Assembly (NCBI GenBank): GCA_964473325.1 | Contig: CAYYOG010000003.1 | Span: 10,478-74,477 of the forward strand | DNA from: an uncultured Thermotogae bacterium | GTDB taxonomy: Bacteria > Bipolaricaulota > Bipolaricaulia > RBG-16-55-9 > DRXL01 | Direction of reading: 5' to 3' | DNA: 64,000 nucleotides | Part shown: one piece after another, positions 9,434-54,823 of the stretch | Layout of the letters: every line of letters starts with the position of its first letter | Numbering within the stretch: the stretch's first letter is position 1 | The notes under the pieces: generated by a model | Seen by the model: the letters and a program-made list of their open reading frames with translations, nothing else | The model's database searches: none | Told to the model about the DNA's origin: nothing | Made by a program: the position numbers and the translations under genes

Positions 9434-12400
9434 AGCCCGTTCCCGCAGGGATGCGCTTGCTCACGATCACCGCGGGCTTGAGGCTCTCTAATCTGTCTAT
9501 AGCCCCTTTGAGCGCTGCTTCAGCGAGTACTGTCGTCGTGCGCATGAACGACGCAGCGGAGAGCCAGGACTTCGTCTCCAACGCGGCCTTGGAGATGCGC
9601 AACAGCACGCGCTCGCCGTTGGGCAAACGCTTCTCAGCAATGCGCTGGGTGACTTTCTCCTTGCCGCGCTCGAGGATAAGCTCAGCTACGCCGGCGCGCA
9701 GGGCACTTTCAATCAGCTCTCGCGTCACGGTGCTGCCCTTCTCTGCTATGACAGCCCCGGTCTTGTCCGCCACTGGCGCAGCTATCGTGAGCCCGATGAT
9801 CTCTTCACGCTGCTGCCGAATCTGACGGTTCTCCTCAAGCAGACGCGTGTTCTCCGCTTGGAACTCTTCTAATAACACAAGCTCATTGGGCAGGAACTGC
9901 GAATCCCCAGGGTCAACAATCCGCACGTTGTTGAGCATCTGTCGGATGACGAGCTCGATGTGCTTGTCGTTGATGTCGACCCCTTGGCTCTTGTAGACTT
10001 TTTGGATCTCCTCCAGGAGATAGATTCTCGTCTTATCCGGGCCAGCGATGGAAAGTAACCTATGGGGTGAGGTCACGCCCTTGGAGAGCAGCTCGCCCTT
10101 CTGAACTTTGTCGCCGGCCTTCACTGTGGGCGGGTTGGTCAGCTCAACCGTCGCCTCGTGATGGTACGCGATCTCCATGAGATCTGAATCGAACGATCTG
10201 ATCGCATCGACCTTGACAAGCTCATCGCTGAGGGCAAGACGAAAGAGGGGCTCCCCCTCTTCGACCCAGTCGCCGTCATTTTTGGAGAGCGTTATATCTT
10301 CAGTGAGCGTGAATGCCTTGTCTTCCTGGGGCTGATAGACAATGATCTGATCCTTGGTGACGATGGCGGTGCCGTCGCAGGGTGCGCGCAGCTCGATCGG
10401 TTTGGAAGCTGTAGAAAGCTGCTCCCCTGTGACGACCTTATCGCCGATATTGACCAAGCGCCGCGCGCCGTAGGGAAGCTTGTAGCGCACGCGATTGCCG
10501 GTCTCTTTCTCTTTGATGATGAGCGCTCGCTCGTCGTTCTCAATGATCTCCTCGACGGTGCCGTCTACTGTAGAGACCACCGGGGGTTCATGGAAGGGTT
10601 CGGCCAAGAGCTCGTCTTTGGTGACTTTCTGGCCGTCGCGCACGAGCGGCTTGACCCCCTCAGGGAGCGTATAGACAGCGTCGTTCTCATCGAGAATATA
10701 GAGCTTGCGAAGCTTGTCAGTCTCGATGATGTGCACGGTACCGCGGCGTGGGCTGCGCTCGTTCAGCAGAGCGCTCAGCAACACGAGGGTGTTCTTCTCT
10801 GGTGGGACAACGAGGGCTTTGGGGAGATGGAGGCGCTTCTCATCGCCGTACAGGACAACGCACTGGCGCCCGGTCTCTTGCGATTGCGTGATGTCTATGA
10901 CGATACCGCTGATGGGAGCGATCTCGCCTTGCGAGCTCCGCACGGCCTTGCGTGCCTCAAAGAGCTCTTCAGCACGGGGAAGACCCTGGGTGATATCGAT
11001 CCCAGCCACACCGCCCGTGTGGAACGTCTTCATAGTTAACTGTGTGCCGGGCTCGCCGATCGATTGCGCGGCGATCACACCAACAGCCGTACCCAGCTCC
11101 ACTAATGTATGCGTGCTCAAGTCGTAGCCATAGCAGAGGCGACAGACGCCACGACGCACGGTGCACCGCATCGGAGAGCGAATGACGATTCTCGGCCGGA
11201 CTCGCACTGTCTCGATATTAAGGGCGCGGAGCTTCTCCGCCAGCGCACGGGTGATGAGCTCATCTTGAGCGACGATCACGCGATTGGTCTTGGGATCGCG
11301 AATATCTTGTGCAGCTTTGGTGCCTACGACCTTGTCATAGAAGTCACGATTGCTGGGGGAGAGCTCAGCAGTGAGATTACCGAAGCGTTGAGTCTTCTCG
11401 CGGTCGAAGCTCTCGCCGCGCTTCATGAGCGTCTCGCCCAAAAACACCAGATCTTGGGCAAGAACCCGTCCGTAGATGCGCTCAGGGATCGTCTCCATAA
11501 CTTCGTCTGGTTTATTGAAGTAGAGGGGATCGATCTCAATACCCTCGGTGGTGCCGCAGTCTTCTTCTTTCACAATGAGCTCTTCGGTGGCGTCGACCAA
11601 GCGGCGCGTGAGATACCCAGAGTCAGCGGTCTTGAGGGCCGTATCGGCTGTGCCTTTGCGGCCCCCGTGCGTGCTAATAAAGTACTCAATGACGTTGAGC
11701 CCCTCTCTAAAGTTGGAGATGACCGGCATCTCGATGATTCTCCCTGAAGGGTCGCTCATGGGGCCGCGCATCCCCGAGAGCTGTTTCACTTGGGTAGCGC
11801 TGCCGCGCGCTCCAGAGTTGACGATCATATAGAGGGGATTGAAGGGGTGCTGAGCCAAGTTGGCCATAGTCGCTTTCGCGACTTCGTCGACAGTGCCCAT
11901 CCAGATGTCGATAACTTTGTCCTTGCGCTCTTCTTCAGTGAGCAGGCCGCGCTCGTAGCGCTCATTGAGTCTCGCGACGCGCTCGCGGGCCGCTTGGATA
12001 ATGCTATCTTTCTCTGGGGAGATGAGGCAATCCCGCACGGAGATCGTTAACCCTGATCTTGTAGCCCACGAGAACCCGATCTCCTTCAAGTCATCTAAAA
12101 GTTGGACAGTGCGCTCCAAGCCGTGCCGGAAGTAACACTCCATGATGAGATCGTTGATCGCATCGGAGTCGAAGACTTTATTGTAGTCGCGCAGATCTGG
12201 CGGGAAGATGTTGTTGAGCAAGGCACGCCCTAGGGTCGTCTCTATGATCTTCCCGTCGATACGGATCTTGATAGGCGTATGGAGAGAGATGATCTTGTCG
12301 TAATAAGCGCGCTCAGCCTCCGCGATGCTGGTGAAGGCTTTGCCCTTGCCTAGGCCGTTCTCGTCGACAGTTGAGAGATAATAATACGCGAAGATCGCGT

Positions 12401-18314: not shown

Positions 18315-18404
18315 GTGGGCTCCCCCAGCATTTGCCCAATGACTCTGTGCTGTTCGCCTTGGCCGGCCTCTGGCTGGCCAAGATAAACGTCAAGGGAAAC
18401 TTGC

Positions 18405-18481
18405 TGGTGCGCCCGGTGCGATTTGAACGCACGACCTGCGGTTTAGGAAACCGCCGCTCTGTCCAACTGAGCTACGGGCGC
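18405..18481 (-). tRNA. tRNA-Arg (anticodon CCT), CCA encoded
   Basis: Manual cloverleaf: acceptor GCGCCCG/CGGGCGC, D-arm GCTC-AGTTGGACA-GAGC, anticodon stem GCGGT/ACCGC with loop TTCCTAA, T-arm GTGCG-TTCAAAT-CGCAC. Confidence 0.85.
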
Positions 18482-18534: not shown

Positions 18535-19227
18535 TCAAGGACAGGGGTCATGCATGATCTGGGCATAGAGCCGGCGGGCAGCATCTTGCTCAGCGGCCTT
18601 CTTGCTGCGCCCCTTCCCTAGCGCCCACAGCTCGTTCACCTCCACCCGGACTGTAAATTCTTTACAATGATCTTCTCCTGCGCTGGTGATCAGAGTGTAG
18701 ATGGGCTTCTGGTGCTGCTCTTGCGCCCACTCTTGCAAGAGCGTCTTATAGTCTTGGCGATGGCGCCCTGCGGCGACACGCTCGATCTCCGGCTGCAAGA
18801 ATTTGCGCACCAACGCTGCCGCACGCTCGTAGCCGTAGTGAGCAAAGATCAGTCCCATTAGGGCTTCAAACGCATCGCCCAGGAGTTTGGAGTTCGAGCG
18901 TCCGCCGGACTCTTCTTCCCCGCGCCCTAAGAGCAAGCACTGATCTAAGCGTAATTCGCGCGCTTTTTCAGCGAGGACCGAGCCGCTGACAACGACAGAT
19001 TTTATCTTGGTCAGCTCGCCCTCGGTGCGATCTGGATAGTTCTTAAAGAGATACTCAGCGACGGCTAGCTCAATCACGGCGTCACCGAGAAATTCTAAAC
19101 GCTCGTTGGACTCGAGTCCTGGGAGTTGCTCATTGACGTAAGAGCTATGGCGGAAGGGGCGCTCCCACTCCTCCAGGGGGAGCTCGCTCAGACCTAGACG
19201 CTCACGCAAGCGTTCCAGCTCAGTCAC
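18535..19227 (-). CDS. rnc: Ribonuclease III
   Basis: ERLEFLGDAV RNase III signature, C-terminal dsRBD. GTG start. Confidence 0.9.
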   Translation of the reverse strand: MTELERLRERLGLSELPLEEWERPFRHSSYVNEQLPGLESNERLEFLGDAVIELAVAEYLFKNYPDRTEGELTKIKSVVVSGSVLAEKARELRLDQCLLLGRGEEESGGRSNSKLLGDAFEALMGLIFAHYGYERAAALVRKFLQPEIERVAAGRHRQDYKTLLQEWAQEQHQKPIYTLITSAGEDHCKEFTVRVEVNELWALGKGRSKKAAEQDAARRLYAQIMHDPCP

Positions 19228-24934: not shown

Positions 24935-25008
24935 GCTTCGAGGCCCTCACCCCCGACCCCTCTCCCGTCTAGACGGGAGAGGGGTGCCCGCAGGGCCGGG
25001 GTGAGGGC
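24935..25008. terminator. Compound GC-rich hairpin; bidirectional terminator between convergent genes
   Basis: Nested inverted repeats gaggccctcacccc…ggggtgagggcct and cccctctcccgtctagacgggagagggg. Confidence 0.55.
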
Positions 25009-35433: not shown

Positions 35434-36981
35434 ATGAAGACCGCGCGAGAAGCCCTCGTGCAGACACTCAAGAAGAACAAGATCGCGCTTGTGACGGGCA
35501 TCTACGGCGACCCTTGTACTGCGTTGTTAGACGAGTGCGCCAAGCAAGGGCTGCACGTCGAGATCAGCACGGAAGAGAAAGTCGCGTTTGCCCAAGCGTT
35601 GGGTACTTCTGTAGCAGGCTTGCCCAGCGTCGTCATCGTCAAGCAAGTCGGGATCAACGTCTTAGCTGATCCATTAGTGACAGCGGTAACGCACGGGATC
35701 GGCGCGGGGCTCTTACTGATAGCTGGGGACGATCCTGGCGCCGCTAAATCCCAAAACGAGCAAGACTCGCGCTGGTACGCCAAGCTTGCTCATATGCCCG
35801 TCTTGACACCACCTGGCCCGCAGTACGTCAGCGATGCTGCGATTGAGGGTCTTCAATTGTCGGGGACGTTAGGCATCCCGGTGATGATGCAGGTGACGGC
35901 GCGCTTGCTCGAGGGCGAGGGCCGCCCTAGCGAGATGCCCCTCACCGTCGAAGCCCGATTTGACCGAGATCGCGCGTGGAAGAACCTCATCTTGGATCGC
36001 TATAAGTATTACTATCAGAAGATCTACCCTCAGCTCTGCGAGCTCGTCGAAGACTCGCCCTTGACAGTTCTCAGTTCTGAGTTTGACAGTTCCCGGTTCA
36101 ATGTAAAACAGGGAACTCAGAACTTAGAACTCTCCCGCGGCGTCGTCTCTTGTGGGTTTGTCTCGACGCTCGTTACCGAGAAGAATCACTTCGCATTGGG
36201 GTATGCGCATCCATTGCCGGAGCGGGCCTTGGTGAGCTTTTTGAAAAACTTAGAGCGCGTGCTGGTCGTCGAAGAGATCGCGCCGATTGTCGAAGAGTCC
36301 GTGAATGCGCTGATAGCACGGCATGGGTTAAAAACAAAAGTCTTTGGGCGGCTGACAGGGCATCTGCCTAGAATCGGGAAGTTAGAAGCGCAGCACATAG
36401 CTGAAGCCTGGGGGCGCAGCGGCGGTGAGCTCCATCTTGATATCCCCACCCAGGTGAGCGGGGGGATCTTAGACCTGCCCTGCGGGGGCTTTGAGCTGCT
36501 CTATCAGGTCTTAGATGAGGTCTTGCCTGAGGGATATTTCGTCGCGGGCGACGTAGGCTGTTCTATTCTGCACGGGTATTTCCCGCCGCAAATAATTGAC
36601 ACGGCGTATGCGTTGGGGACGTCTATTTCAACGGCAGCGGGGATGAGTCTTGCTGGGCGCAAAGGCATAGCGATCATAGGGGACACGGGGTTTATCCATT
36701 CGGGGATCACGGGTCTGTTGAACGCCGTCGAGCACAAGCACAATGTCTTGGTGATCGTTCTCTATAATAAATTTTCAGCGATGACGCCGGGGGCCCAGCC
36801 CATACCAGGGCTGGAGCGGCTGCGGGTGTTAGTCGAGGCTTGCGGCGCAGACGCCGTAGATGAAATTCAGATGGAACAGGCTTCTGAAGACGAGCTGAAG
36901 CGCCTGTTGGAGAGGCGTTTAGAGGAGCGCGGGGTGCACGTGCTGATTGCCCACGCCAAGCCAAAAAAGTTGCACGAATGA
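35434..36981 (+). CDS. Indolepyruvate/2-oxoacid ferredoxin oxidoreductase alpha-subunit-like TPP enzyme, lacking the usual 4Fe-4S ferredoxin insert
   Basis: N-terminal POR-like domain, C-terminal TPP-binding region GDVGCSILHG…IIGDTGFIHSGITGLLNAVEHKHNVLVIVLYN; GAGGTGA SD. Contains an in-frame copy of the GTTTGACAGTTC repeat element at 36061-36135. Confidence 0.6.
   Translation: MKTAREALVQTLKKNKIALVTGIYGDPCTALLDECAKQGLHVEISTEEKVAFAQALGTSVAGLPSVVIVKQVGINVLADPLVTAVTHGIGAGLLLIAGDDPGAAKSQNEQDSRWYAKLAHMPVLTPPGPQYVSDAAIEGLQLSGTLGIPVMMQVTARLLEGEGRPSEMPLTVEARFDRDRAWKNLILDRYKYYYQKIYPQLCELVEDSPLTVLSSEFDSSRFNVKQGTQNLELSRGVVSCGFVSTLVTEKNHFALGYAHPLPERALVSFLKNLERVLVVEEIAPIVEESVNALIARHGLKTKVFGRLTGHLPRIGKLEAQHIAEAWGRSGGELHLDIPTQVSGGILDLPCGGFELLYQVLDEVLPEGYFVAGDVGCSILHGYFPPQIIDTAYALGTSISTAAGMSLAGRKGIAIIGDTGFIHSGITGLLNAVEHKHNVLVIVLYNKFSAMTPGAQPIPGLERLRVLVEACGADAVDEIQMEQASEDELKRLLERRLEERGVHVLIAHAKPKKLHE
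36061..36135. repeat. Copy of the short dispersed repeat (core GTTTGACAGTTCyCAGTT, with internal inverted repeat) lying in-frame inside a CDS
   Basis: ttgacagttctcagttctgagtttgacagttcccggttc…gggaactcagaact shares 25/27 nt with 40572-40600 and ~20 nt with 40643-40663. Confidence 0.6.
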
Positions 36982-37085: not shown

Positions 37086-39209
37086 ATGAGCCATCGAAGG
37101 ATCTTCGCAGCTCTTCTTATAGGGGTTATTGTCGGCTTCCTTGGTCAACAGTCAGTAACCCACGCGGCTTCTGTACGCGACGTCGTTATCAGCGAGGTCG
37201 CGTGGATGGGCACGCAAGCGAGTGCCAATGACGAGTGGATCGAGCTGTATAATAACACTGATTATGATATCGATCTGACGGGATGGAAGCTCCAAGCTGA
37301 AGACGGCACGCCTACTATCGTGCTCTCCGGGATTATCCCCGCCCACGGGTTCTTTCTGTTGGAGAGAACTGATGATAATACTGTCAGTGACATCGCTGCT
37401 GATCTTGTCTACGGCAATGATGGATCTAGTTGGGCGTTGAGCAATAGCGGCGAGAAGCTCTTGCTGAAAGACTCAAACAATATTGTCATAGACACAGCCA
37501 ATGGCAATGGCGGCCCCTGGCCCGCCGGAACTGCCTCACCAAGAGCAACAATGGAACGGATTGATCCCACAGCTCCCGACTCTGACGCAAACTGGGATAC
37601 CAACGACGGTGTCCATCGCAATGGGCTTGACGCGAATAATAATCCCATCAACGGCACACCGAAAGCCCCGCGCCAGCGCGCGTCTTACAATGCCCGTGAC
37701 GTCGTGATCAGCGAGATCGCGTGGATGGGGACAGAAGCTAGTGCCAACGATGAATGGATTGAGCTCTATAACAATACTGATCGCGCGATTAGTCTTGTGT
37801 GGTGGCGCTTAGAAGCAGCTGATGGGGTGCCCTCAATAGTGCTCTCTGGTACCATCCCTGCGCGCGGGTTTTTCTTGCTGGAGCGCACCGACGACAGCAC
37901 AGTCAGCGACATTCCTGCCGATCAGATCTACACCGGAGCTCTCTCTAATTCTGGGGAGAGCCTGATCTTGAAAGACCCGTCGGGGAACGTCATAGACACT
38001 GCCAACGGCGACGGTGGCCCTTGGCCCGCCGGAAACGATTTCCCACGAGCAACGATGGAGCGTTTGGACTTGCTCGCTCCAGACTCAGATACGAATTGGG
38101 CGACGAATAACGGGGTCTATCGCAATGGCTTGGATGCCCAAAGTAATCCCATCAACGGCACGCCCAAGGCTCATAAGCCTCCCTATGTCACGATCATCAG
38201 TCCTAGGGCAACCGCGCCCGTGTATCTCTACCCAGGAGAGAGCTTCTCTGTCAGCTTCACTAGCGACGAAGCAGGCACTGCGGAGATCAACGTCAACGGG
38301 ACAAGCTGCGGCGGTGGAGCTATCAGCATGGGGACGAACTCTCAGCTATGCACGCTCCCTAGCCCATTTGCCCATGGCATCTATGATCTCTCTGTGACAG
38401 TCACTGACGCCACGACGACTGCTGGTACTGCAACGGCAACAGATGCGGTGCACGTGATCGTAGCAACTCTTGGTGACGTCAACGGTGACGGAAAGGTCAA
38501 CGTGATTGACGCGCGCCTAGCACAGCAGCACGCCGACGGGTTCATCACGCTCGCGGGGATACAGCTCTTAGCTGCTGACGTCGACCAAGACAGTGACGTA
38601 GACTCCGCTGACGCGACGGCGATTGCCAGGAAGGGGATTGGGCTGCCCACGGGAATCCCTTGGTTTGTGCTCGCCGTGCCCGCGTTGGCGTTCTTGCTAG
38701 TATCTCGCTGCAGAGGGTTCGCGGCACTGCTCCTCATGATGGGATTGCTAGGAACTCTGACGAGTTGCTCGGAGTTTGCGGGCCCGCCTCCGCCGTCCGG
38801 CCCCTCGCTATTTATCACTTCGACTTCGATGCCCAACGGTGCGACGCGCACGCTCGATCTGGCCGTGCAAAACGTGACGGCTCAGGGCGGCGTGGCCTCG
38901 CTCCAGGGGCGGATCACCTATCCTCCTGGGAGAGTGACGGTGCAGTCGCTCACGGGCTTGAATGGCTTCGTTGTCAAGGCATTCGTGATACATGACCGCG
39001 AGCTGCGCTTCGCTCTCGTTAAGCCTAGCCCTGGAGGGATCAGCTCCGGAATCGTCGCGCGAGTAACTCTATCAGTTTGGGGAGCGCCAGGGGACATCGT
39101 CACGCTGAGATGGGCTGCCAGCGCCCAGACACCAATAGTCATCGGCGGAGAGACGAACACGGAGGTCACAGGGCTTAGTTTTGGCGACGGCCAAGTGAAG
39201 GTACGCTAG
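37086..39209 (+). CDS. Surface protein: signal peptide, two tandem lamin-tail domains (LTD), an Ig-like region, a dockerin type-I-like double Ca-binding repeat, an internal sorting-signal/lipobox-like hydrophobic segment, and a C-terminal cohesin-like domain
   Basis: LTD repeats at aa 28-195 and 205-370 are ~75% identical (nt 37170-37650 vs 37690-38170). Dockerin loops DVNGDGKVNVIDARL and DVDQDSDVDSADATAI. Segment GLPTGIPWFVLAVPALAFLLVSRCRG-FAALLLMMGLLGTLTSCSE at nt ~38660-38760. Confidence 0.6.
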   Translation: MSHRRIFAALLIGVIVGFLGQQSVTHAASVRDVVISEVAWMGTQASANDEWIELYNNTDYDIDLTGWKLQAEDGTPTIVLSGIIPAHGFFLLERTDDNTVSDIAADLVYGNDGSSWALSNSGEKLLLKDSNNIVIDTANGNGGPWPAGTASPRATMERIDPTAPDSDANWDTNDGVHRNGLDANNNPINGTPKAPRQRASYNARDVVISEIAWMGTEASANDEWIELYNNTDRAISLVWWRLEAADGVPSIVLSGTIPARGFFLLERTDDSTVSDIPADQIYTGALSNSGESLILKDPSGNVIDTANGDGGPWPAGNDFPRATMERLDLLAPDSDTNWATNNGVYRNGLDAQSNPINGTPKAHKPPYVTIISPRATAPVYLYPGESFSVSFTSDEAGTAEINVNGTSCGGGAISMGTNSQLCTLPSPFAHGIYDLSVTVTDATTTAGTATATDAVHVIVATLGDVNGDGKVNVIDARLAQQHADGFITLAGIQLLAADVDQDSDVDSADATAIARKGIGLPTGIPWFVLAVPALAFLLVSRCRGFAALLLMMGLLGTLTSCSEFAGPPPPSGPSLFITSTSMPNGATRTLDLAVQNVTAQGGVASLQGRITYPPGRVTVQSLTGLNGFVVKAFVIHDRELRFALVKPSPGGISSGIVARVTLSVWGAPGDIVTLRWAASAQTPIVIGGETNTEVTGLSFGDGQVKVR

Positions 39210-40491: not shown

Positions 40492-40567
<76 letters not shown>

Positions 40568-40571
40568 ACGG

Positions 40572-40690
40572 AACAGTTCTGAGTTTGACGGTTCCCAGTT
40601 AGGTGGTTTTTATCATAGCAGAGTCTCTTGAAGCTGTCAAGGACAGCTCAGGGTTTGACAGTTCTCAGTTTCTTTATATCATAGAACTGT
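40572..40690 (+). repeat. Tandem ~65-bp duplication carrying two copies of the GTTTGACRGTTC repeat; the distal copy reads as a promoter (TTGACA 40646-40651, 16 nt, TATCAT 40668-40673) for the downstream gene
   Basis: Units 40575-40639 and 40640-40705 align at ~70% identity; both contain TTTGACRGTTC…TTATCATAG. Confidence 0.5.
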
Positions 40691-41388: not shown

Positions 41389-41480
41389 CCAGACTTCGTC
41401 TGGACTGTTCGCCTTCGTCCGGTCGGACGCAGATGAAGCTCACGCACAGCGTGCAGGCGCAGTCTGGTGGGAGGGTAGCT

Positions 41481-42448: not shown

Positions 42449-42537
42449 GGATGCCAGCCTCCTTGTGTACTGGCTTATCTTACGGTCGGGGGAGAGAGGA
42501 GACTATGACGGGCATTACATTCATGGTATAATTATGA

Positions 42538-42970
42538 GCGAAGAGGAGCAGAGGGCCGCCCCAGGCTCCGCCTGGACTGTACGCCTTCGCCAGCCAGAGG
42601 CTGGCGAAGATGAAGGTCAAGCGAAGCTTGTCCAGACGAAGCCTGGGGAGGAAAGTCCGGACTCCACGGGGCAGGCCGCTCGCCGCAAGGCGAGAAGGAG
42701 CGATCCTTGGAAAGTGCCACAGAGAAGAGACCGCCAGCGGCCGGCGGCACGCGCCGCCGGTGCGGGCAAGGGTGAAACGGTGGAGTAAGAGCCCACCGCC
42801 CCGCTCGCGAGAGTCGGGGGCACGGCAAACCCCGGCCGGAGCAAGACCAAGTAAGGGCGCGTCTGAGAGTGGCCCGCTCGAATCGTGCCCGGGTAGGTCG
42901 CAGAGAGAGATGGCCCTCACCGACTCTTGGACAGAGTCGGCACAGAATCCGGCTTATGCTCCTCTTCTTT
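42538..42970 (+). ncRNA. rnpB: RNase P RNA, bacterial type A, with an extended (~95-nt) P3 helix
   Basis: Conserved regions read directly: GGAAAGTCCGGACTCC, AGGGTGAAACGGTGGAGTAAGAGCCCACC, ACAGAATCCGGCTTAT; P1 gaagaggagca/tgctcctcttc; P2 gagggcc/ggccctc. TATAAT at 42526-42531 lies 6 nt upstream of the 5' end. Confidence 0.9.
42561..42646. repeat. ~86-nt palindromic element forming the rnpB P3 extension; a second copy lies in hypF at 53880-53952
   Basis: Shares caggctccgcctgg…cttcgccagccagaggctggcgaag…gtccagacgaagYctgg with 53880-53952. Terminal inverted repeats and a central hairpin cttcgccagc-cagag-gctggcgaag. Confidence 0.7.
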
Positions 42971-43081
42971 TTTGTTCTTTGACGAACCGGGCGCTATCGG
43001 ATAGAATATTCTTTGGCGATGGAGTCCGCCGTCAACCGTCCGGGCACGTCGGACTGATGACTCCTACCTAAGACTCTTCAT

Positions 43082-44281
43082 GTGGATAAGGGGTCGGTTG
43101 ATGTGCAAGACCTATATGTCGGGACGGTGCTGGCGGGCTTGATCTTTCTCTCTAGTATTCTCTCTGTCGAGTTAGGGCTTTCGGCCGCGATCATCGAGAT
43201 CGCGTTCGGCGTGCTCGCTGGGAACTTCTTGGGCGTCACGGCTCTCCCCTGGGTCGCTTATATGGCGAGCCTGGGCGGGATTCTCTTGACGTTTCTGGCA
43301 GGAGCTGAAGTCGATCTCGACGTGATGCGGGCCAAGTTCAAAGAGAGTCTTCTTATTGGGGGCATCTCGTTCTTGGCACCCTTCCTCGGCACGATGCTCA
43401 TCTGTCACTATCTGTTGGGCTGGGAGTGGAAGGCCGCGCAGATCGCCGGCGTCGCTCTCTCGACCACATCGCTTGCTGTCGTCTACGCCGTGCTCGTCGA
43501 GACCGGACTGACCCACACCTCTGTAGGAAAACTGATCATGGCCGCGACCTTTGTGACCGACTTTGGCACCGCAGCAGCCTTAGCACTCGTGCTCTTAGAG
43601 TTCAATCTTAATACGCTCTGGTTCGTGCTGATCTCTCTTATAACTATTCTGCTTGCGCCCCGGATCGCGCCACGGCTCTTTGCTCGCTATGGGGATCGGG
43701 TCATCGAGCCGGAGATAAAATTTCTCTTTTTGCTCTTAGTGATTTTGATGTACTTTGCCAAGCTGGGGCTGAGCCACGCGATCCTGCCCGCGTTCATGCT
43801 GGGGCTGGTGATGTCGCGGCTCTTCCAAAAGAACATCCGGCTCCAGCGCAAGCTGCGCGTCGTGGGCTTTGCGTTCATCACGCCGATCTTCTTCCTAAGC
43901 GGGGGCACGAAGATCTCGCTGTCGCTCTTATGGTCCAGCGCGGCGCTCTTTCTCATTCTGTTCGCGGTGAAGCAGATCGCTAAGATCGTCGGGGTGTACC
44001 CTCTGGCGCGGCACTATCTGCCCAAAGAAGCGATGTACACGACGCTGCTGATGAGCACCGGGCTGACGATGGGGACGCTCTCGTCCGTGGCGGGGCTGGA
44101 GGCAAGTTTGATTGATCAATTGCAATTCTCGGTTCTCGTTGCGGTCGTAGTGGCCAGCGCCATCGTGCCGACGTTCATCGCCCAGAGATTCTTCCATCCC
44201 CATCACGCGTTAGTAGAACTTCATCATAAAGAAGAAGAGTCTTCCCAGCCGGCGCTGGTCGAAGAGACGGCTCAACAGTAA
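43082..44281 (+). CDS. Cation:proton antiporter (Na+/H+ exchanger family)
   Basis: ~11 TM helices with CPA-family pattern (…LGGILLTFLAGAEVDL…). GTG start. Confidence 0.8.
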   Translation: MDKGSVDVQDLYVGTVLAGLIFLSSILSVELGLSAAIIEIAFGVLAGNFLGVTALPWVAYMASLGGILLTFLAGAEVDLDVMRAKFKESLLIGGISFLAPFLGTMLICHYLLGWEWKAAQIAGVALSTTSLAVVYAVLVETGLTHTSVGKLIMAATFVTDFGTAAALALVLLEFNLNTLWFVLISLITILLAPRIAPRLFARYGDRVIEPEIKFLFLLLVILMYFAKLGLSHAILPAFMLGLVMSRLFQKNIRLQRKLRVVGFAFITPIFFLSGGTKISLSLLWSSAALFLILFAVKQIAKIVGVYPLARHYLPKEAMYTTLLMSTGLTMGTLSSVAGLEASLIDQLQFSVLVAVVVASAIVPTFIAQRFFHPHHALVELHHKEEESSQPALVEETAQQ

Positions 44282-52495: not shown

Positions 52496-54823
52496 TCACC
52501 CCTTACAGTGTGACGCGGCCACGATCTGTCCCAGTGCGATCCCGCCGTCGTTAGGCGGAACCCGTTGATGCCAGTAGACGCGAAAGCCCTCTGCGCGCAG
52601 CCGCGCGGCCGCTCGCTCAGTCAGATATTTATTCTGAAAGCATCCCCCGGTCAGCACAACTCGTCCTTCTCCGACACGCCGCGCCACAGCGATGATCATC
52701 TCTACCAAAGTATTGTGAAACTTCGCGGCTATCTTACCAACTGAAACGCCGTCGCGCACATCTCTGATAATGCTGAGGAGCATCGGTTCCCAGTCGAGCA
52801 CCTCGTGAGAGAGAGCGAACTCATAACTCTCGTCTGTCTCCATCCCGTGTAGGGCAAACTCGAGCTCCATCGCGGCTTGGCCCTCAAAGCGACTGATTTG
52901 TCGAAGCCCGACTAAAGAAGCAGCAGCGTCGAAGAACCGCCCAGCGCTCGATGTTGTGGGGCTATTTAGATTCTTTTGCAGCATTGTGAGCAAGGGCTTC
53001 AGCTCGTGCTCTGGGAAGCTCTGAACTGGGGCGAGATCGGCGCACTCGCGGGCCAGCGCGTCGCCGAAAAGCTCGTAGAGCACGCCGAGCGCTGCGCGTC
53101 GTGGCTCCTTGATCGCGTGCTCGCCCCCGGGGAGACGAAATGTCCGTAGATGGGCAACTCGTCTGAACGACTCTCGCGTAGCTAAGAGAAATTCTCCACC
53201 CCAGATTGTGCCGTCGAGCCCGTAGCCCGTCCCGTCCCACGAGACCCCCAAGACCGAGCCGTCCAGCTCGTTCTCCGCCATGCACGCCAACACATGGGCA
53301 TAATGATGCTGGACTCCAACTTTGGGAAGATCGCGTTGCTGCGCGTACTTTGTCGAAAGATACTCCGGGTGCAGATCATGGGCGATCACCGACGGACGGG
53401 CTTCGTAGAGGAGTTCAAAATCGCGAATGACTCTCCCAAACGCGCTGAACGCTTCGGCGGTCTCTAAGTCTCCGATGTGCTGGCTGATGAAGACGTTGGA
53501 GCTGACCGAGAGCGCCATGGTGTTCTTGAGATGTGCGCCGACGGCGAGGACGGTTCTGGGTTCAGAGCTCGTAGTTTCCAGTGTGATAGGCAGCGGCGCG
53601 TACCCGCGGGCGCGGCGCAACACCAGCTCCCGTCCCGCGACTATACGTACGATTGAGTCGTCGACATGGCGCGCGATAGGGCGATTGTGCACCAGAAAGA
53701 GATCAGCGATTTTATTAAGCTTTTGTAGTGCCTCGCGCTCGTCGGTGCAGATGGGCTCGTCGGAGAGATTGCCGCTGGTAGCAACGATGGGGAAGCCGAG
53801 CTCAGCCATCAACAAGTGATGGAGCGGCGTGTAGGGCAACATGATACCGAGATAGGGATTGCGCGGGGCAACGGAGGGACCAGGCTCCGCCTGGTCCATA
53901 CATCTTCGCCAGCCAGAGGCTGGCGAAGGCGTACGGTCCAGACGAAGTCTGGGCAGCAGCACAATCGGCGCCTCTGGGGACGTTAACAAGCGTTCTTCTA
54001 GTTCGGAGACTTCGCAATGGGCTGTGATAAGTTCTAGCGACGGATACATGAGCGCAAACGGCTTCTCTTCGCGGTGCTTGCGCTTGCGTAACTCTTGCAC
54101 GGCGTCGTCGTTGCGGGCATCGCAGATCAAGTGAAACCCGCCCAAGCCCTTGACGGCAACGATCTGTCCATTGCGAATCGCTTCGGCAGCTTTATACAAT
54201 GCGTCGTCATGTTGGGCGAGCACCCTGCCCTGGCGATCCCATAGTTCCAAGTGTGGCCCGCACACAGGGCACGCATTGGGCTGCGCATGAAAGCGCCGAT
54301 TCGAAGGGTCTTCGTATTCGGCTTGGCAGTCGGGGCACATTCTGAAGATCTTCATGGTCGTGTTCGGGCGATCATAGGGCAGGGCTTCAATAATAGAGAA
54401 GCGCGGGCCGCAGTTTGTACAGTTTGTAAACGGATAGCGATAGCGTCGGTCGTTGGGGTCAAAGATCTCGCGCAGGCAGTCGGGGCAGGTCGCAATATCT
54501 GGGAGAATAAACGCTGTCTTCTGGCCTGACTCATCGCTATGGCGAATTTCAAATGCTGTGTAGCCGACAGGGTCGAGCCACACGGACTCCAAGCTCTGAA
54601 TAAACGCGCGCGGGGGCTTGTCGCGCTCGAGTCTGCGCAAGAATTCTTCGAGTTGCTCTTTGGGCCCTTCAGTTTCGATGAAGACGCCCTGAGCAGAATT
54701 GAGCACCCAGCCCGTCAGTTTTAGCTCTGTGGCAAGACGATAGACGAACGGGCGGAAGCCCACCCCCTGCACTGCCCCGTGGATCGTGACCTTAAGGCGT
54801 ACCGCGTGCTCTCTCATGGCCAC
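52496..54823 (-). CDS. hypF: Carbamoyltransferase HypF (contains a ~25-aa in-frame insert encoded by the palindromic element at 53880-53952)
   Basis: Acylphosphatase domain (VQGVGFRPFV), two CxxC…CxxC zinc fingers, YrdC-like and Kae1-like domains (…GGCFQN…). The insert LRLDRTPSPASGWRRCMDQAEPG falls between the YrdC-like and Kae1-like domains. Confidence 0.9.
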   Translation of the reverse strand: MAMREHAVRLKVTIHGAVQGVGFRPFVYRLATELKLTGWVLNSAQGVFIETEGPKEQLEEFLRRLERDKPPRAFIQSLESVWLDPVGYTAFEIRHSDESGQKTAFILPDIATCPDCLREIFDPNDRRYRYPFTNCTNCGPRFSIIEALPYDRPNTTMKIFRMCPDCQAEYEDPSNRRFHAQPNACPVCGPHLELWDRQGRVLAQHDDALYKAAEAIRNGQIVAVKGLGGFHLICDARNDDAVQELRKRKHREEKPFALMYPSLELITAHCEVSELEERLLTSPEAPIVLLPRLRLDRTPSPASGWRRCMDQAEPGPSVAPRNPYLGIMLPYTPLHHLLMAELGFPIVATSGNLSDEPICTDEREALQKLNKIADLFLVHNRPIARHVDDSIVRIVAGRELVLRRARGYAPLPITLETTSSEPRTVLAVGAHLKNTMALSVSSNVFISQHIGDLETAEAFSAFGRVIRDFELLYEARPSVIAHDLHPEYLSTKYAQQRDLPKVGVQHHYAHVLACMAENELDGSVLGVSWDGTGYGLDGTIWGGEFLLATRESFRRVAHLRTFRLPGGEHAIKEPRRAALGVLYELFGDALARECADLAPVQSFPEHELKPLLTMLQKNLNSPTTSSAGRFFDAAASLVGLRQISRFEGQAAMELEFALHGMETDESYEFALSHEVLDWEPMLLSIIRDVRDGVSVGKIAAKFHNTLVEMIIAVARRVGEGRVVLTGGCFQNKYLTERAAARLRAEGFRVYWHQRVPPNDGGIALGQIVAASHCKG
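53880..53952. repeat. Second copy of the palindromic element, in-frame within hypF
   Basis: ccaggctccgcctggtccatacatcttcgccagccagaggctggcgaaggcgtacggtccagacgaagtctgg; matches rnpB 42561-42646 apart from internal indels. Confidence 0.7.

Follow-up and report, generated by a model that had tools for sequence, protein, structure and literature searches.

The gene for RNase P RNA (rnpB) in an uncultured bacterium of the Bipolaricaulota (Acetothermia/OP1) carries an 86-nt palindromic element as its entire P3 helix, and a 73-nt form of the same element lies in frame within hypF. Both were found in a 64,000-nt stretch of contig CAYYOG010000003.1 (assembly GCA_964473325.1, forward-strand positions 10,478 to 74,477), hereafter the window, which we compared with loci fetched from related genomes (given L numbers below). 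We consider it likely that the two copies belong to a non-autonomous family of palindromic repeats in this phylum, similar to repetitive extragenic palindromic (REP) sequences and Rickettsia palindromic elements (RPEs), in which the P3 copy is old and fixed and the HypF insert is tolerated. Our literature search found no description of such a family in the Bipolaricaulota, or of repeats in the P3 helix of RNase P RNA. The family, previously undescribed, adds a further case to an established class of selfish DNA, rather than a system of a new type, and comes from a poorly known, uncultured phylum.

A palindromic element forms the P3 helix of RNase P RNA

The rnpB gene occupies positions 42540–42972 on the plus strand and encodes a bacterial type A RNase P RNA. 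The assignment rests on a match to the Rfam covariance model RF00010 (193 bits, gathering score 100), on the P1 complementarity, on the fold of the whole RNA and on more than 20 syntenic loci; P1, P2 and P4 are seen both in the sequence and in the fold. P1 is formed by GAAGAGGAGC (42540–42549) pairing with GCTCCTCTTC (42958–42967), after which there is a U-run. A sigma-70-like promoter site (ATGACG-16-TG-TATAAT, 42505–42532, plus strand) ends 7 nt before the predicted +1, and this motif block is kept in relatives. The RF00010 alignment does not start until 42605, part-way through the element, and a false P1 results. Since the long P3 is absorbed into this false helix, the Rfam model places the 5′ end 65 nt away from the actual start at approximately 42540, and automatic annotation of Bipolaricaulota genomes probably truncates rnpB.

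The element in rnpB (copy A, 42561–42646, plus strand) was delineated from sequence and fold, and the coordinates given in an earlier reading of this DNA (the original prediction) proved exact. It is located between P2 and P4, the latter (GGAGGAAAGTCCGG) lying directly 3′ of the element, and it constitutes the whole of P3. Copy A reads CCAGGCTCCGCCTGG-ACTGTACGC-CTTCGCCAGC-CAGAG-GCTGGCGAAG-ATGAAGGT-CAAGCGAAGCTTG-T-CCAGACGAAGCCTGG, with the same order of modules as the copies at L117 211–296 and L138 6066–6151. The left arm (CCAGGC-TCC-GCCTGG, 42561–42575) is itself a 6-bp hairpin and the right arm (CCAGAC-GAA-GCCTGG) spans 42632–42646, all on the plus strand. Between the arms lie a core hairpin of the type that we term C1 (CTTCGCCAGC-CAGAG-GCTGGCGAAG, 42585–42609) and a small, arm-like extra hairpin, the S module (CAAGC-GAA-GCTTG, 42618–42630), which separates the 86-nt from the 73-nt forms. 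In a strain with 99% identity, the right arm is CCAGGCGAAGCCTGG, an A-to-G change that improves the pairing of arm with arm.

The predicted fold of the complete 433-nt RNA contains a closed P1 and a long P3 hairpin, for which the predicted stability is −59 kcal/mol (z = −6.2). Counting two extra C–G pairs, P3 is approximately 90 nt in length compared to 21–22 nt in the sole element-free related clade, which bears out the claim that it is unusually long. Because the promoter, P1/P2 and P4 flank copy A, the element lies inside the RNA. The alternative, that it lies outside RNase P RNA, was ruled out by the whole-RNA fold and the position of the promoter.

Four copies of the element lie in the window

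The second copy that had been noted (copy B, 53880–53952) is a 73-nt element within hypF (52496–54823, minus strand), the gene for the carbamoyltransferase HypF. Copy B has the same left arm as copy A, a 25-nt core hairpin identical to that of copy A, and CCAGACGAAGTCTGG as its right arm. The insert encodes approximately PRLRLDRTPSPASGWRRCMDQAEPG and is in frame, the 775-aa open reading frame (ORF) being intact with all HypF domains. Thus, the reported recurrence of the rnpB element in hypF holds.

Two further copies are present. Copy C, a diverged 79-nt element (41389–41467), lies between the stop codon of a CT398-like gene, immediately past which it begins, and a TPM-domain gene. Copy D (approximately 18334–18404) is a decayed element of the 86-nt type, which starts directly after the encoded CCA of a tRNA-Arg(CCU) gene (18405–18481, minus strand). 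The repeat is therefore not confined to the two sites first noted, as four copies occur in the window and more in relatives.

With copies A and B alone in view, the repeat could be taken for a palindrome arisen by chance, for an artefact of assembly or for a single event that duplicated a segment between rnpB and hypF. Shuffled-sequence controls gave an expectation of 0 matches, whether to the core or to the two-arm pattern, and four copies lie in the window. Independent assemblies of other samples (L121, L122 and L139) contain the rnpB element as well, and the family is found in many metagenome-assembled genomes (MAGs). The family and the independent assemblies already refute these explanations, and we regard their probability as negligible.

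The copies belong to a modular family

Comparison of the copies reveals a family of modular palindromic repeats, with forms of 69, 73 and 86–87 nt, spread across many Bipolaricaulota/Acetothermia genomes. Each copy is comprised of two 15-nt inverted arms, 9–10-nt spacers, a core hairpin and an optional S hairpin. The arm sequence of the family is CCAGGCTTCGCCTGG, with a G-arm (CCAGGC-TTC-GCCTGG) and an A-arm (CCAGAC-GAA-GTCTGG); each is a perfect 6-bp hairpin, so that the G/A difference between arms is compensated within each arm. The C1 core (CTTCGCCGGCC..GGCCGGCGAAG) is found in the 73-nt form and the C2 core (C[G/T]TGCCGCC..GGCGGCA[C/A]G) in the 69-nt form, while the S module (CAAGC-TTC-GCTTG) is a third arm-like hairpin present in the 86–87-nt form. 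As RNA, the copies are predicted to fold into one extended hairpin with energies of −52 to −76 kcal/mol (z of −6 to −11).

A profile search with nhmmer returned 69 matches in 281 kb of Bipolaricaulota DNA, comprising the window and 34 fetched loci; these include copies from several near-identical strains, so the non-redundant count is lower. Among the 17 distinct 69-nt copies, three mismatches between the two halves (5–65 G·T, 11–59 C·A and 18–52 C·A) are invariant in all 17, and core pairs show compensatory changes (26–44 TA/GC; 32–42 AT/GC/CG). These invariant mismatches and compensatory changes point to copying from common templates with the palindrome maintained. The asymmetry between G·U and A·C is uninformative as to the strand on which any RNA-level selection would act, with three wobbles and two mismatches on one strand against two and three on the other, which is near symmetric.

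A pattern scan of representative genomes placed all of the true family members, among the matches listed, in Bipolaricaulota/Acetothermia MAGs, and a stricter pattern gave zero family matches in viral contigs. The other matches listed, from Nostoc, actinomycetes and Rhodobium, were rejected as unrelated palindromic families. Among named proteins, the homologues of the TPM-domain and HypF proteins encoded in the window likewise belong to Bipolaricaulota, which places the window in this phylum.

Orthologous sites differ between relatives and between strains

The site of copy C is occupied in two strains with 99–100% identity to the window (L121 and L122) as well as in the window itself, and is empty, with 3–17 nt in its place, in every other species examined, including L139 at approximately 80% DNA identity. 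In a second group of strains (L129, L130, L131, L141 and L148), the flanks are near-identical, yet four orthologous sites differ in module content: one follows the LTD gene, one is internal to Sua5, one is at the 3′ end of Sua5 and one is the P3 helix of rnpB. L129 and L131, which were checked, encode identical CT398 and TPM proteins. At these variable sites, the outer boundaries are constant and extra solo arms appear. The empty orthologous sites of relatives, and the differences in modules between near-identical strains, indicate that the family has been mobile recently. Together with the four copies in the window and the nhmmer matches, this site polymorphism upholds the proposal of a dispersed, RPE-like palindromic family that also enters ORFs.

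No target-site duplication is visible in the flanks of more than 60 copies, nor on comparing filled with empty sites.

The short-read contigs of other samples tend to stop at the repeat: those of L121 and L122 end at positions equivalent to 42738 and 42609 of the window, and that of L139 starts in or next to a copy. The repeat thus breaks short-read assemblies, two contigs ending inside or beside a copy.

The P3 copy is old and varies in form between lineages

We recovered rnpB by synteny from approximately 25 loci, representing roughly 12 lineages, using the conserved gene order of CT398, TPM, an 86-aa gene, rnpB, a fluoride riboswitch and an exchanger gene. P3 carries the element in all of the sampled lineages but one clade. 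In the orientation of the window, it takes the 86-nt form in the window, L121 and L139, the 73-nt form in L134, L137, L140 and L150, and the 69-nt form in L142. In the opposite orientation, it takes 83–86-nt forms in L123–L128, where an extra stem (CCCCACCA/TGGTGGGG) encloses the element in L123–L125, and a 73-nt form in L146. L129–L131, L141 and L148 have composite forms of approximately 120–130 nt, and in L143 and L147 one arm is eroded. These calls of orientation are ambiguous, as arms and interior are separable, giving hybrid arms and flipped interiors. The exception is the clade of L133/L145 and L149, with a conventional P3 of 21–22 nt and zero copies elsewhere in the sampled DNA. In a tree from two neighbouring proteins, this clade is placed between element-bearing clades, which implies either one loss or at least two gains of the P3 element.

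The P3 copies of the window and L139 are identical at 85 of 86 positions, while the flanking genes share approximately 80% DNA identity. It follows that the copy in the window is not a fresh insertion; by this comparison, it is old, conserved and under constraint. The pairing of arm with arm is no better in rnpB copies than in others, and G/G arm pairs also occur outside rnpB.

Helix P12 is occupied too. An element copy is present in P12 of L140 (3744–3814), L142 (3818–3886) and L147 (1181–1251), and L150 also bears one, as L140 does. The P12 tip of L137 is a solo arm-like S hairpin (CCAAGC-TCC-GCTTGG) with no full copy. P3 and P12 are variable-length peripheral helices of bacterial RNase P RNA, and this fits survival of the element only at permissive sites. 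An essential ribozyme gene can have a helix built wholly from a selfish repeat, kept for a long time and in some populations remodelled between strains. In vivo, P3 and P12 are thereby singled out as the structurally permissive positions of bacterial RNase P RNA.

The original prediction set a mobile element against a lineage-specific expansion of P3. The mobile family stands but the exclusion does not, as an element-built P3 is also a feature of most of the approximately 12 lineages, with 21–22 nt in one clade, and both descriptions hold. A stronger version of the expansion would make rnpB the master copy from which the dispersed copies derive. The P3 copy is indeed old and conserved, it is the sole copy seen in 8–22 kb of L132, L134 and L137, and rnpB is essential, so that its copy is not lost by gene deletion. 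However, the orientation, core type and module number in P3 vary by lineage and by strain, which is the behaviour of a target rather than of a stable source; the commonest genomic forms (69-nt C2 and 73-nt C1) differ from the rnpB form in the window; and the clade with a conventional short P3 branches between element-bearing clades. We therefore consider derivation from rnpB very unlikely.

Copies adjoin tRNA genes more often than expected

In the MAG loci and the window, a tRNA gene adjoins 7 of 34 copies, compared to 0.11 expected, and none of 5000 permutations reached seven. The adjoining copies either share the encoded 3′ CCA, with which the element begins, or stop precisely at position −1 of the tRNA that follows. 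Both orientations occur beside tRNA genes, as they do in P3. This association may reflect a preference for the target, tolerance of a hairpin in spacers that are processed away, or a function. The gene for RNase III (18535–19227, minus strand) lies directly upstream of tRNA-Arg(CCU) and copy D, and its presence indicates that the organism can cleave long RNA duplexes.

We weighed the possibility that the hairpin is a functional RNA module, which in RNase P RNA and in flanking pre-tRNAs would coordinate processing, for instance as an entry site for RNase III or by binding a protein common to both; ORF copies would be by-products in that case. The seven tRNA-adjoining copies, with their shared CCA or ends at −1, would be explained, as would the occupation of P3 in nearly all lineages and the stronger conservation of this copy compared to the genes beside it. 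The predicted duplexes are long and near-perfect, and RNase III is encoded next to the tRNA that is followed by copy D. However, copies beside tRNA genes and in P3 occur in both orientations, there is free variation in loop sequence and in module content, even from strain to strain, and many copies are in frame in unrelated protein genes. One clade has a plain 21–22-nt P3 and zero copies in the sampled DNA. Moreover, the conservation of P3 may owe nothing to the element in particular, given that RNase P RNA as a whole is conserved. On balance, such a module is unlikely. We give similarly little credence to its most explicit form, in which the hairpin in the enzyme (P3, sometimes P12) and in pre-tRNA leaders and trailers is cut by RNase III or bound by a common factor, or to the related idea that rnpB is a protected master copy which reseeds the family. 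The former, if true, would mean a naturally fragmented RNase P RNA, akin to that of rRNAs with intervening sequences, or a coupling of RNase P to the processing of tRNA operons.

Kissing complementarity between the loops of P3 and those of tRNA-flanking copies was also considered and was rejected by eye, because the loop sequences are not conserved.

The HypF loop and other protein genes accommodate copies in frame

Copy B is inserted in the YrdC-like domain of HypF, between PIVLL and LGIMLPY. Comparison with the solved structure 3VTH places the extra sequence in a loop between two conserved strands. This loop, after PIVLLRR, is short or empty in other phyla and in seven Bipolaricaulota homologues. 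In other homologues, the loop holds the present element as 69-, 73- or 86-nt forms, in three reading frames or orientations, while yet others have in this loop an unrelated third insert or palindromes of a second family (CCCCTCTCCC..GGGAGAGGGG). The boundaries of the HypF insert are shifted by 4 nt between the window and L138. Copy B is probably a tolerated in-frame insert, in a loop that has been repeatedly colonised by repeats of three different families.

ORFs also run through copies in Sua5, which was named by Pfam, and in five genes (MutL-, PurL-, ABC-permease-, epimerase- and subtilase-like) whose names were given by eye on reading the translations. Such in-frame "protein-coding palindromes" parallel the RPEs of Rickettsia.

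The second palindrome family is found at 24958–24983 in the window, where it sits after an hsp20 gene, and at L127 2870–2901, L132 5319–5350 and L123 5582–5607. It was seen only in Bipolaricaulota loci. In addition to its in-frame positions in the HypF loop and in Sua5, it occurs just 3′ of rnpB in some relatives and in P12 of L127 and L132.

Comparison with known repeat systems

We compared the family to known classes of short repeats. In behaviour, the closest match is with the RPEs, which are likewise short palindromes of high copy number, inserted in frame in ORFs and in RNA genes, lacking an associated transposase and persisting where an extra peptide or helix is tolerated. Rickettsia felis has 728 RPEs, of which 85 are within ORFs and three in RNA genes (PMC1166351). 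For the Bipolaricaulota family, the corresponding sites are hypF, Sua5, the five ORFs named by eye, P3 and P12. Phylum and sequence differ, and the likeness is one of behaviour, not a comparison with RPE consensus sequences. The Bipolaricaulota family differs further in being modular with exchange of modules at strain level, in its strong enrichment at tRNA borders and in its occupancy of P3 across most of the phylum. Thus, the suggested affinity with RPEs stands for behaviour, whereas by sequence the core is closer to REPs of the CGTC type.

The CGTC-tagged REP superfamily includes, in its CGTC-1 group, the dRS3 of Neisseria and the RPE-6 of R. conorii (Di Nocera et al. 2013, PMC3733652). Its units are defined by a CGTC (or TGTC/CCTC) tag, an 8–9-bp stem with A/T in the first two pairs, a 4–5-nt loop, a CCA tail and an arrangement as head-to-head dimers; intragenic units are known and a dedicated transposase is not (PMC3733652). 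The C2 core, CGTC-TTGCCGCC-GAAG-GGCGGCAA, has the CGTC tag, an 8-bp stem starting with two A/T pairs and a 4-nt loop. Across copies, the TTGCCGCC / GGCGGCAA stem is closed by loops of 3–4 nt, and an exact CGTC precedes it in 10 of the 17 distinct 69-nt copies. The C1 core starts with TT and deviates further, with a stem of 10–11 bp and a CATC or CGCC tag; the C1 cores of the window are preceded by CGCC in copy A and by CATC in copy B. The tail is GGT, GAT or GGC rather than CCA, and cores occur singly between the 15-nt arms, not as dimers.

REP doublets forming hairpins (REPINs) and bacterial interspersed mosaic elements (BIMEs), which are mobilised by REP-associated tyrosine transposases (RAYTs), share with the family two inverted hairpin units that fold as one long hairpin, mosaic modules, the absence of target-site duplications and populations that are mostly inherited vertically. 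The GTAG tag of REPINs is absent at the borders of arms and core, the arms beginning with CCAG, and no RAYT (Y1_Tnp) was found in 48 of the 55 long ORFs of the window, the part that was scanned, or in the called genes of the fetched loci. The many copies inside ORFs and RNA genes would be unusual for REPINs. Terminal inverted repeats are present as in miniature inverted-repeat transposable elements, whereas the target-site duplication of that class is absent.

Two precedents involve structural RNAs. The short tandemly repeated repetitive (STRR) sequences of cyanobacteria are said to occur in helix P12 of RNase P RNA, as Vioque reportedly described in 1997. They resemble the present case in that a genome-wide repeat occupies a peripheral helix of RNase P RNA and the gene is kept, and P12 is also occupied in relatives of the window. 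They are, however, tandem heptamers rather than palindromes, and in the Bipolaricaulota the helix chiefly occupied is P3, which consists of the element itself. Intervening sequences of 23S and 16S rRNA are excised by RNase III. As with these, extended near-perfect hairpins here replace the tip of a peripheral helix in an essential RNA, and RNase III is encoded; unlike them, there is no evidence in these data for excision from, or fragmentation of, RNase P RNA.

Proposed mode of spread and points against it

In the REP/RPE-like reading that we favour, the family would have spread through DNA-level copying. That its arms are hairpins, that target duplications are lacking, that modules land in or beside arms and that replacements are cassette-like all suggest that mobilisation proceeds by recognition of single-stranded hairpins or by recombination at the arms. 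This mechanism would be similar to that of HUH/RAYT-type systems, for which no enzyme was identified in the sampled DNA. Copies would persist only where a long hairpin is harmless, in spacers beside tRNAs or after stop codons, in surface loops of proteins when in frame, and in peripheral helices of RNase P RNA. The rnpB copy sits exactly at the position of P3 and, in the predicted fold, its arms pair and continue into an extended hairpin of approximately 40 bp; it would be transcribed as part of the RNA and would have replaced the native short P3. We infer that this P3 is neutral for catalysis.

Several points weigh against this reading. A clean pair of empty and filled sites between near-identical strains was not obtained, and the exact junctions are undefined. 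The insertions in HypF are not simple additions, since they replace 18–25 nt of the ancestral loop. Neither the Pfam scans of 48 ORFs of the window nor the called genes of the fetched loci revealed a transposase or another mobilising gene; the remaining seven ORFs are the spurious ORF of rnpB, hypF, neighbours that are named in relatives and 3′-end ORFs that are syntenic with CODH/ACS genes. The ORFs between neighbouring copies in the MAG loci, which we inspected, also showed no transposase. The two-arm scan was too loose to establish the number of copies per genome or a restriction to the phylum. The retention of copy A in mature RNase P RNA is a prediction from the modelled fold, and a function, rather than tolerance, could account both for the excess at tRNA genes and for the occupation of P3 in nearly all lineages.

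Other observations

Immediately downstream of rnpB, a fluoride riboswitch (43006–43073, 56 bits) precedes a gene of the Na+/H+-exchanger family (43082–44281), not crcB. It has its own promoter-like site (TTGACG-17-TAGAAT), and the arrangement is kept in relatives.

A 27-nt direct repeat, CAGTTCTGAGTTTGACRGTTCCCRGTT, is present at 36072–36098, 40574–40600 and 40644–40670. The last two copies lie just upstream of tRNA-Ala (40492–40567, minus strand), where a similar motif is found in relatives, and the repeat may be a promoter or regulatory motif. The LTD/dockerin-domain protein gene at 37086–39209 has an internal duplication of approximately 504–519 nt, with 75–84% identity, at 37176–38170.

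A dense cluster of DnaA-box-like 9-mers (variants of TTATCCACA / TGTGGATAA) occurs at 981–1107 and 1177–1205, in direct and inverted arrays, between genes for an aldehyde dehydrogenase and a solute-binding protein and with no adjacent dnaA. This cluster is possibly an origin of replication or a locus that titrates DnaA.

Finally, the Rhodobium orientis locus returned by the pattern scan (L029, 6436–6864) holds a regular array with a period of approximately 69–71 nt, in which constant repeats (CCAGCCACCGGCTGGGATAGAAAC) alternate with variable spacers. The array resembles CRISPR and has no relation to the Bipolaricaulota family.

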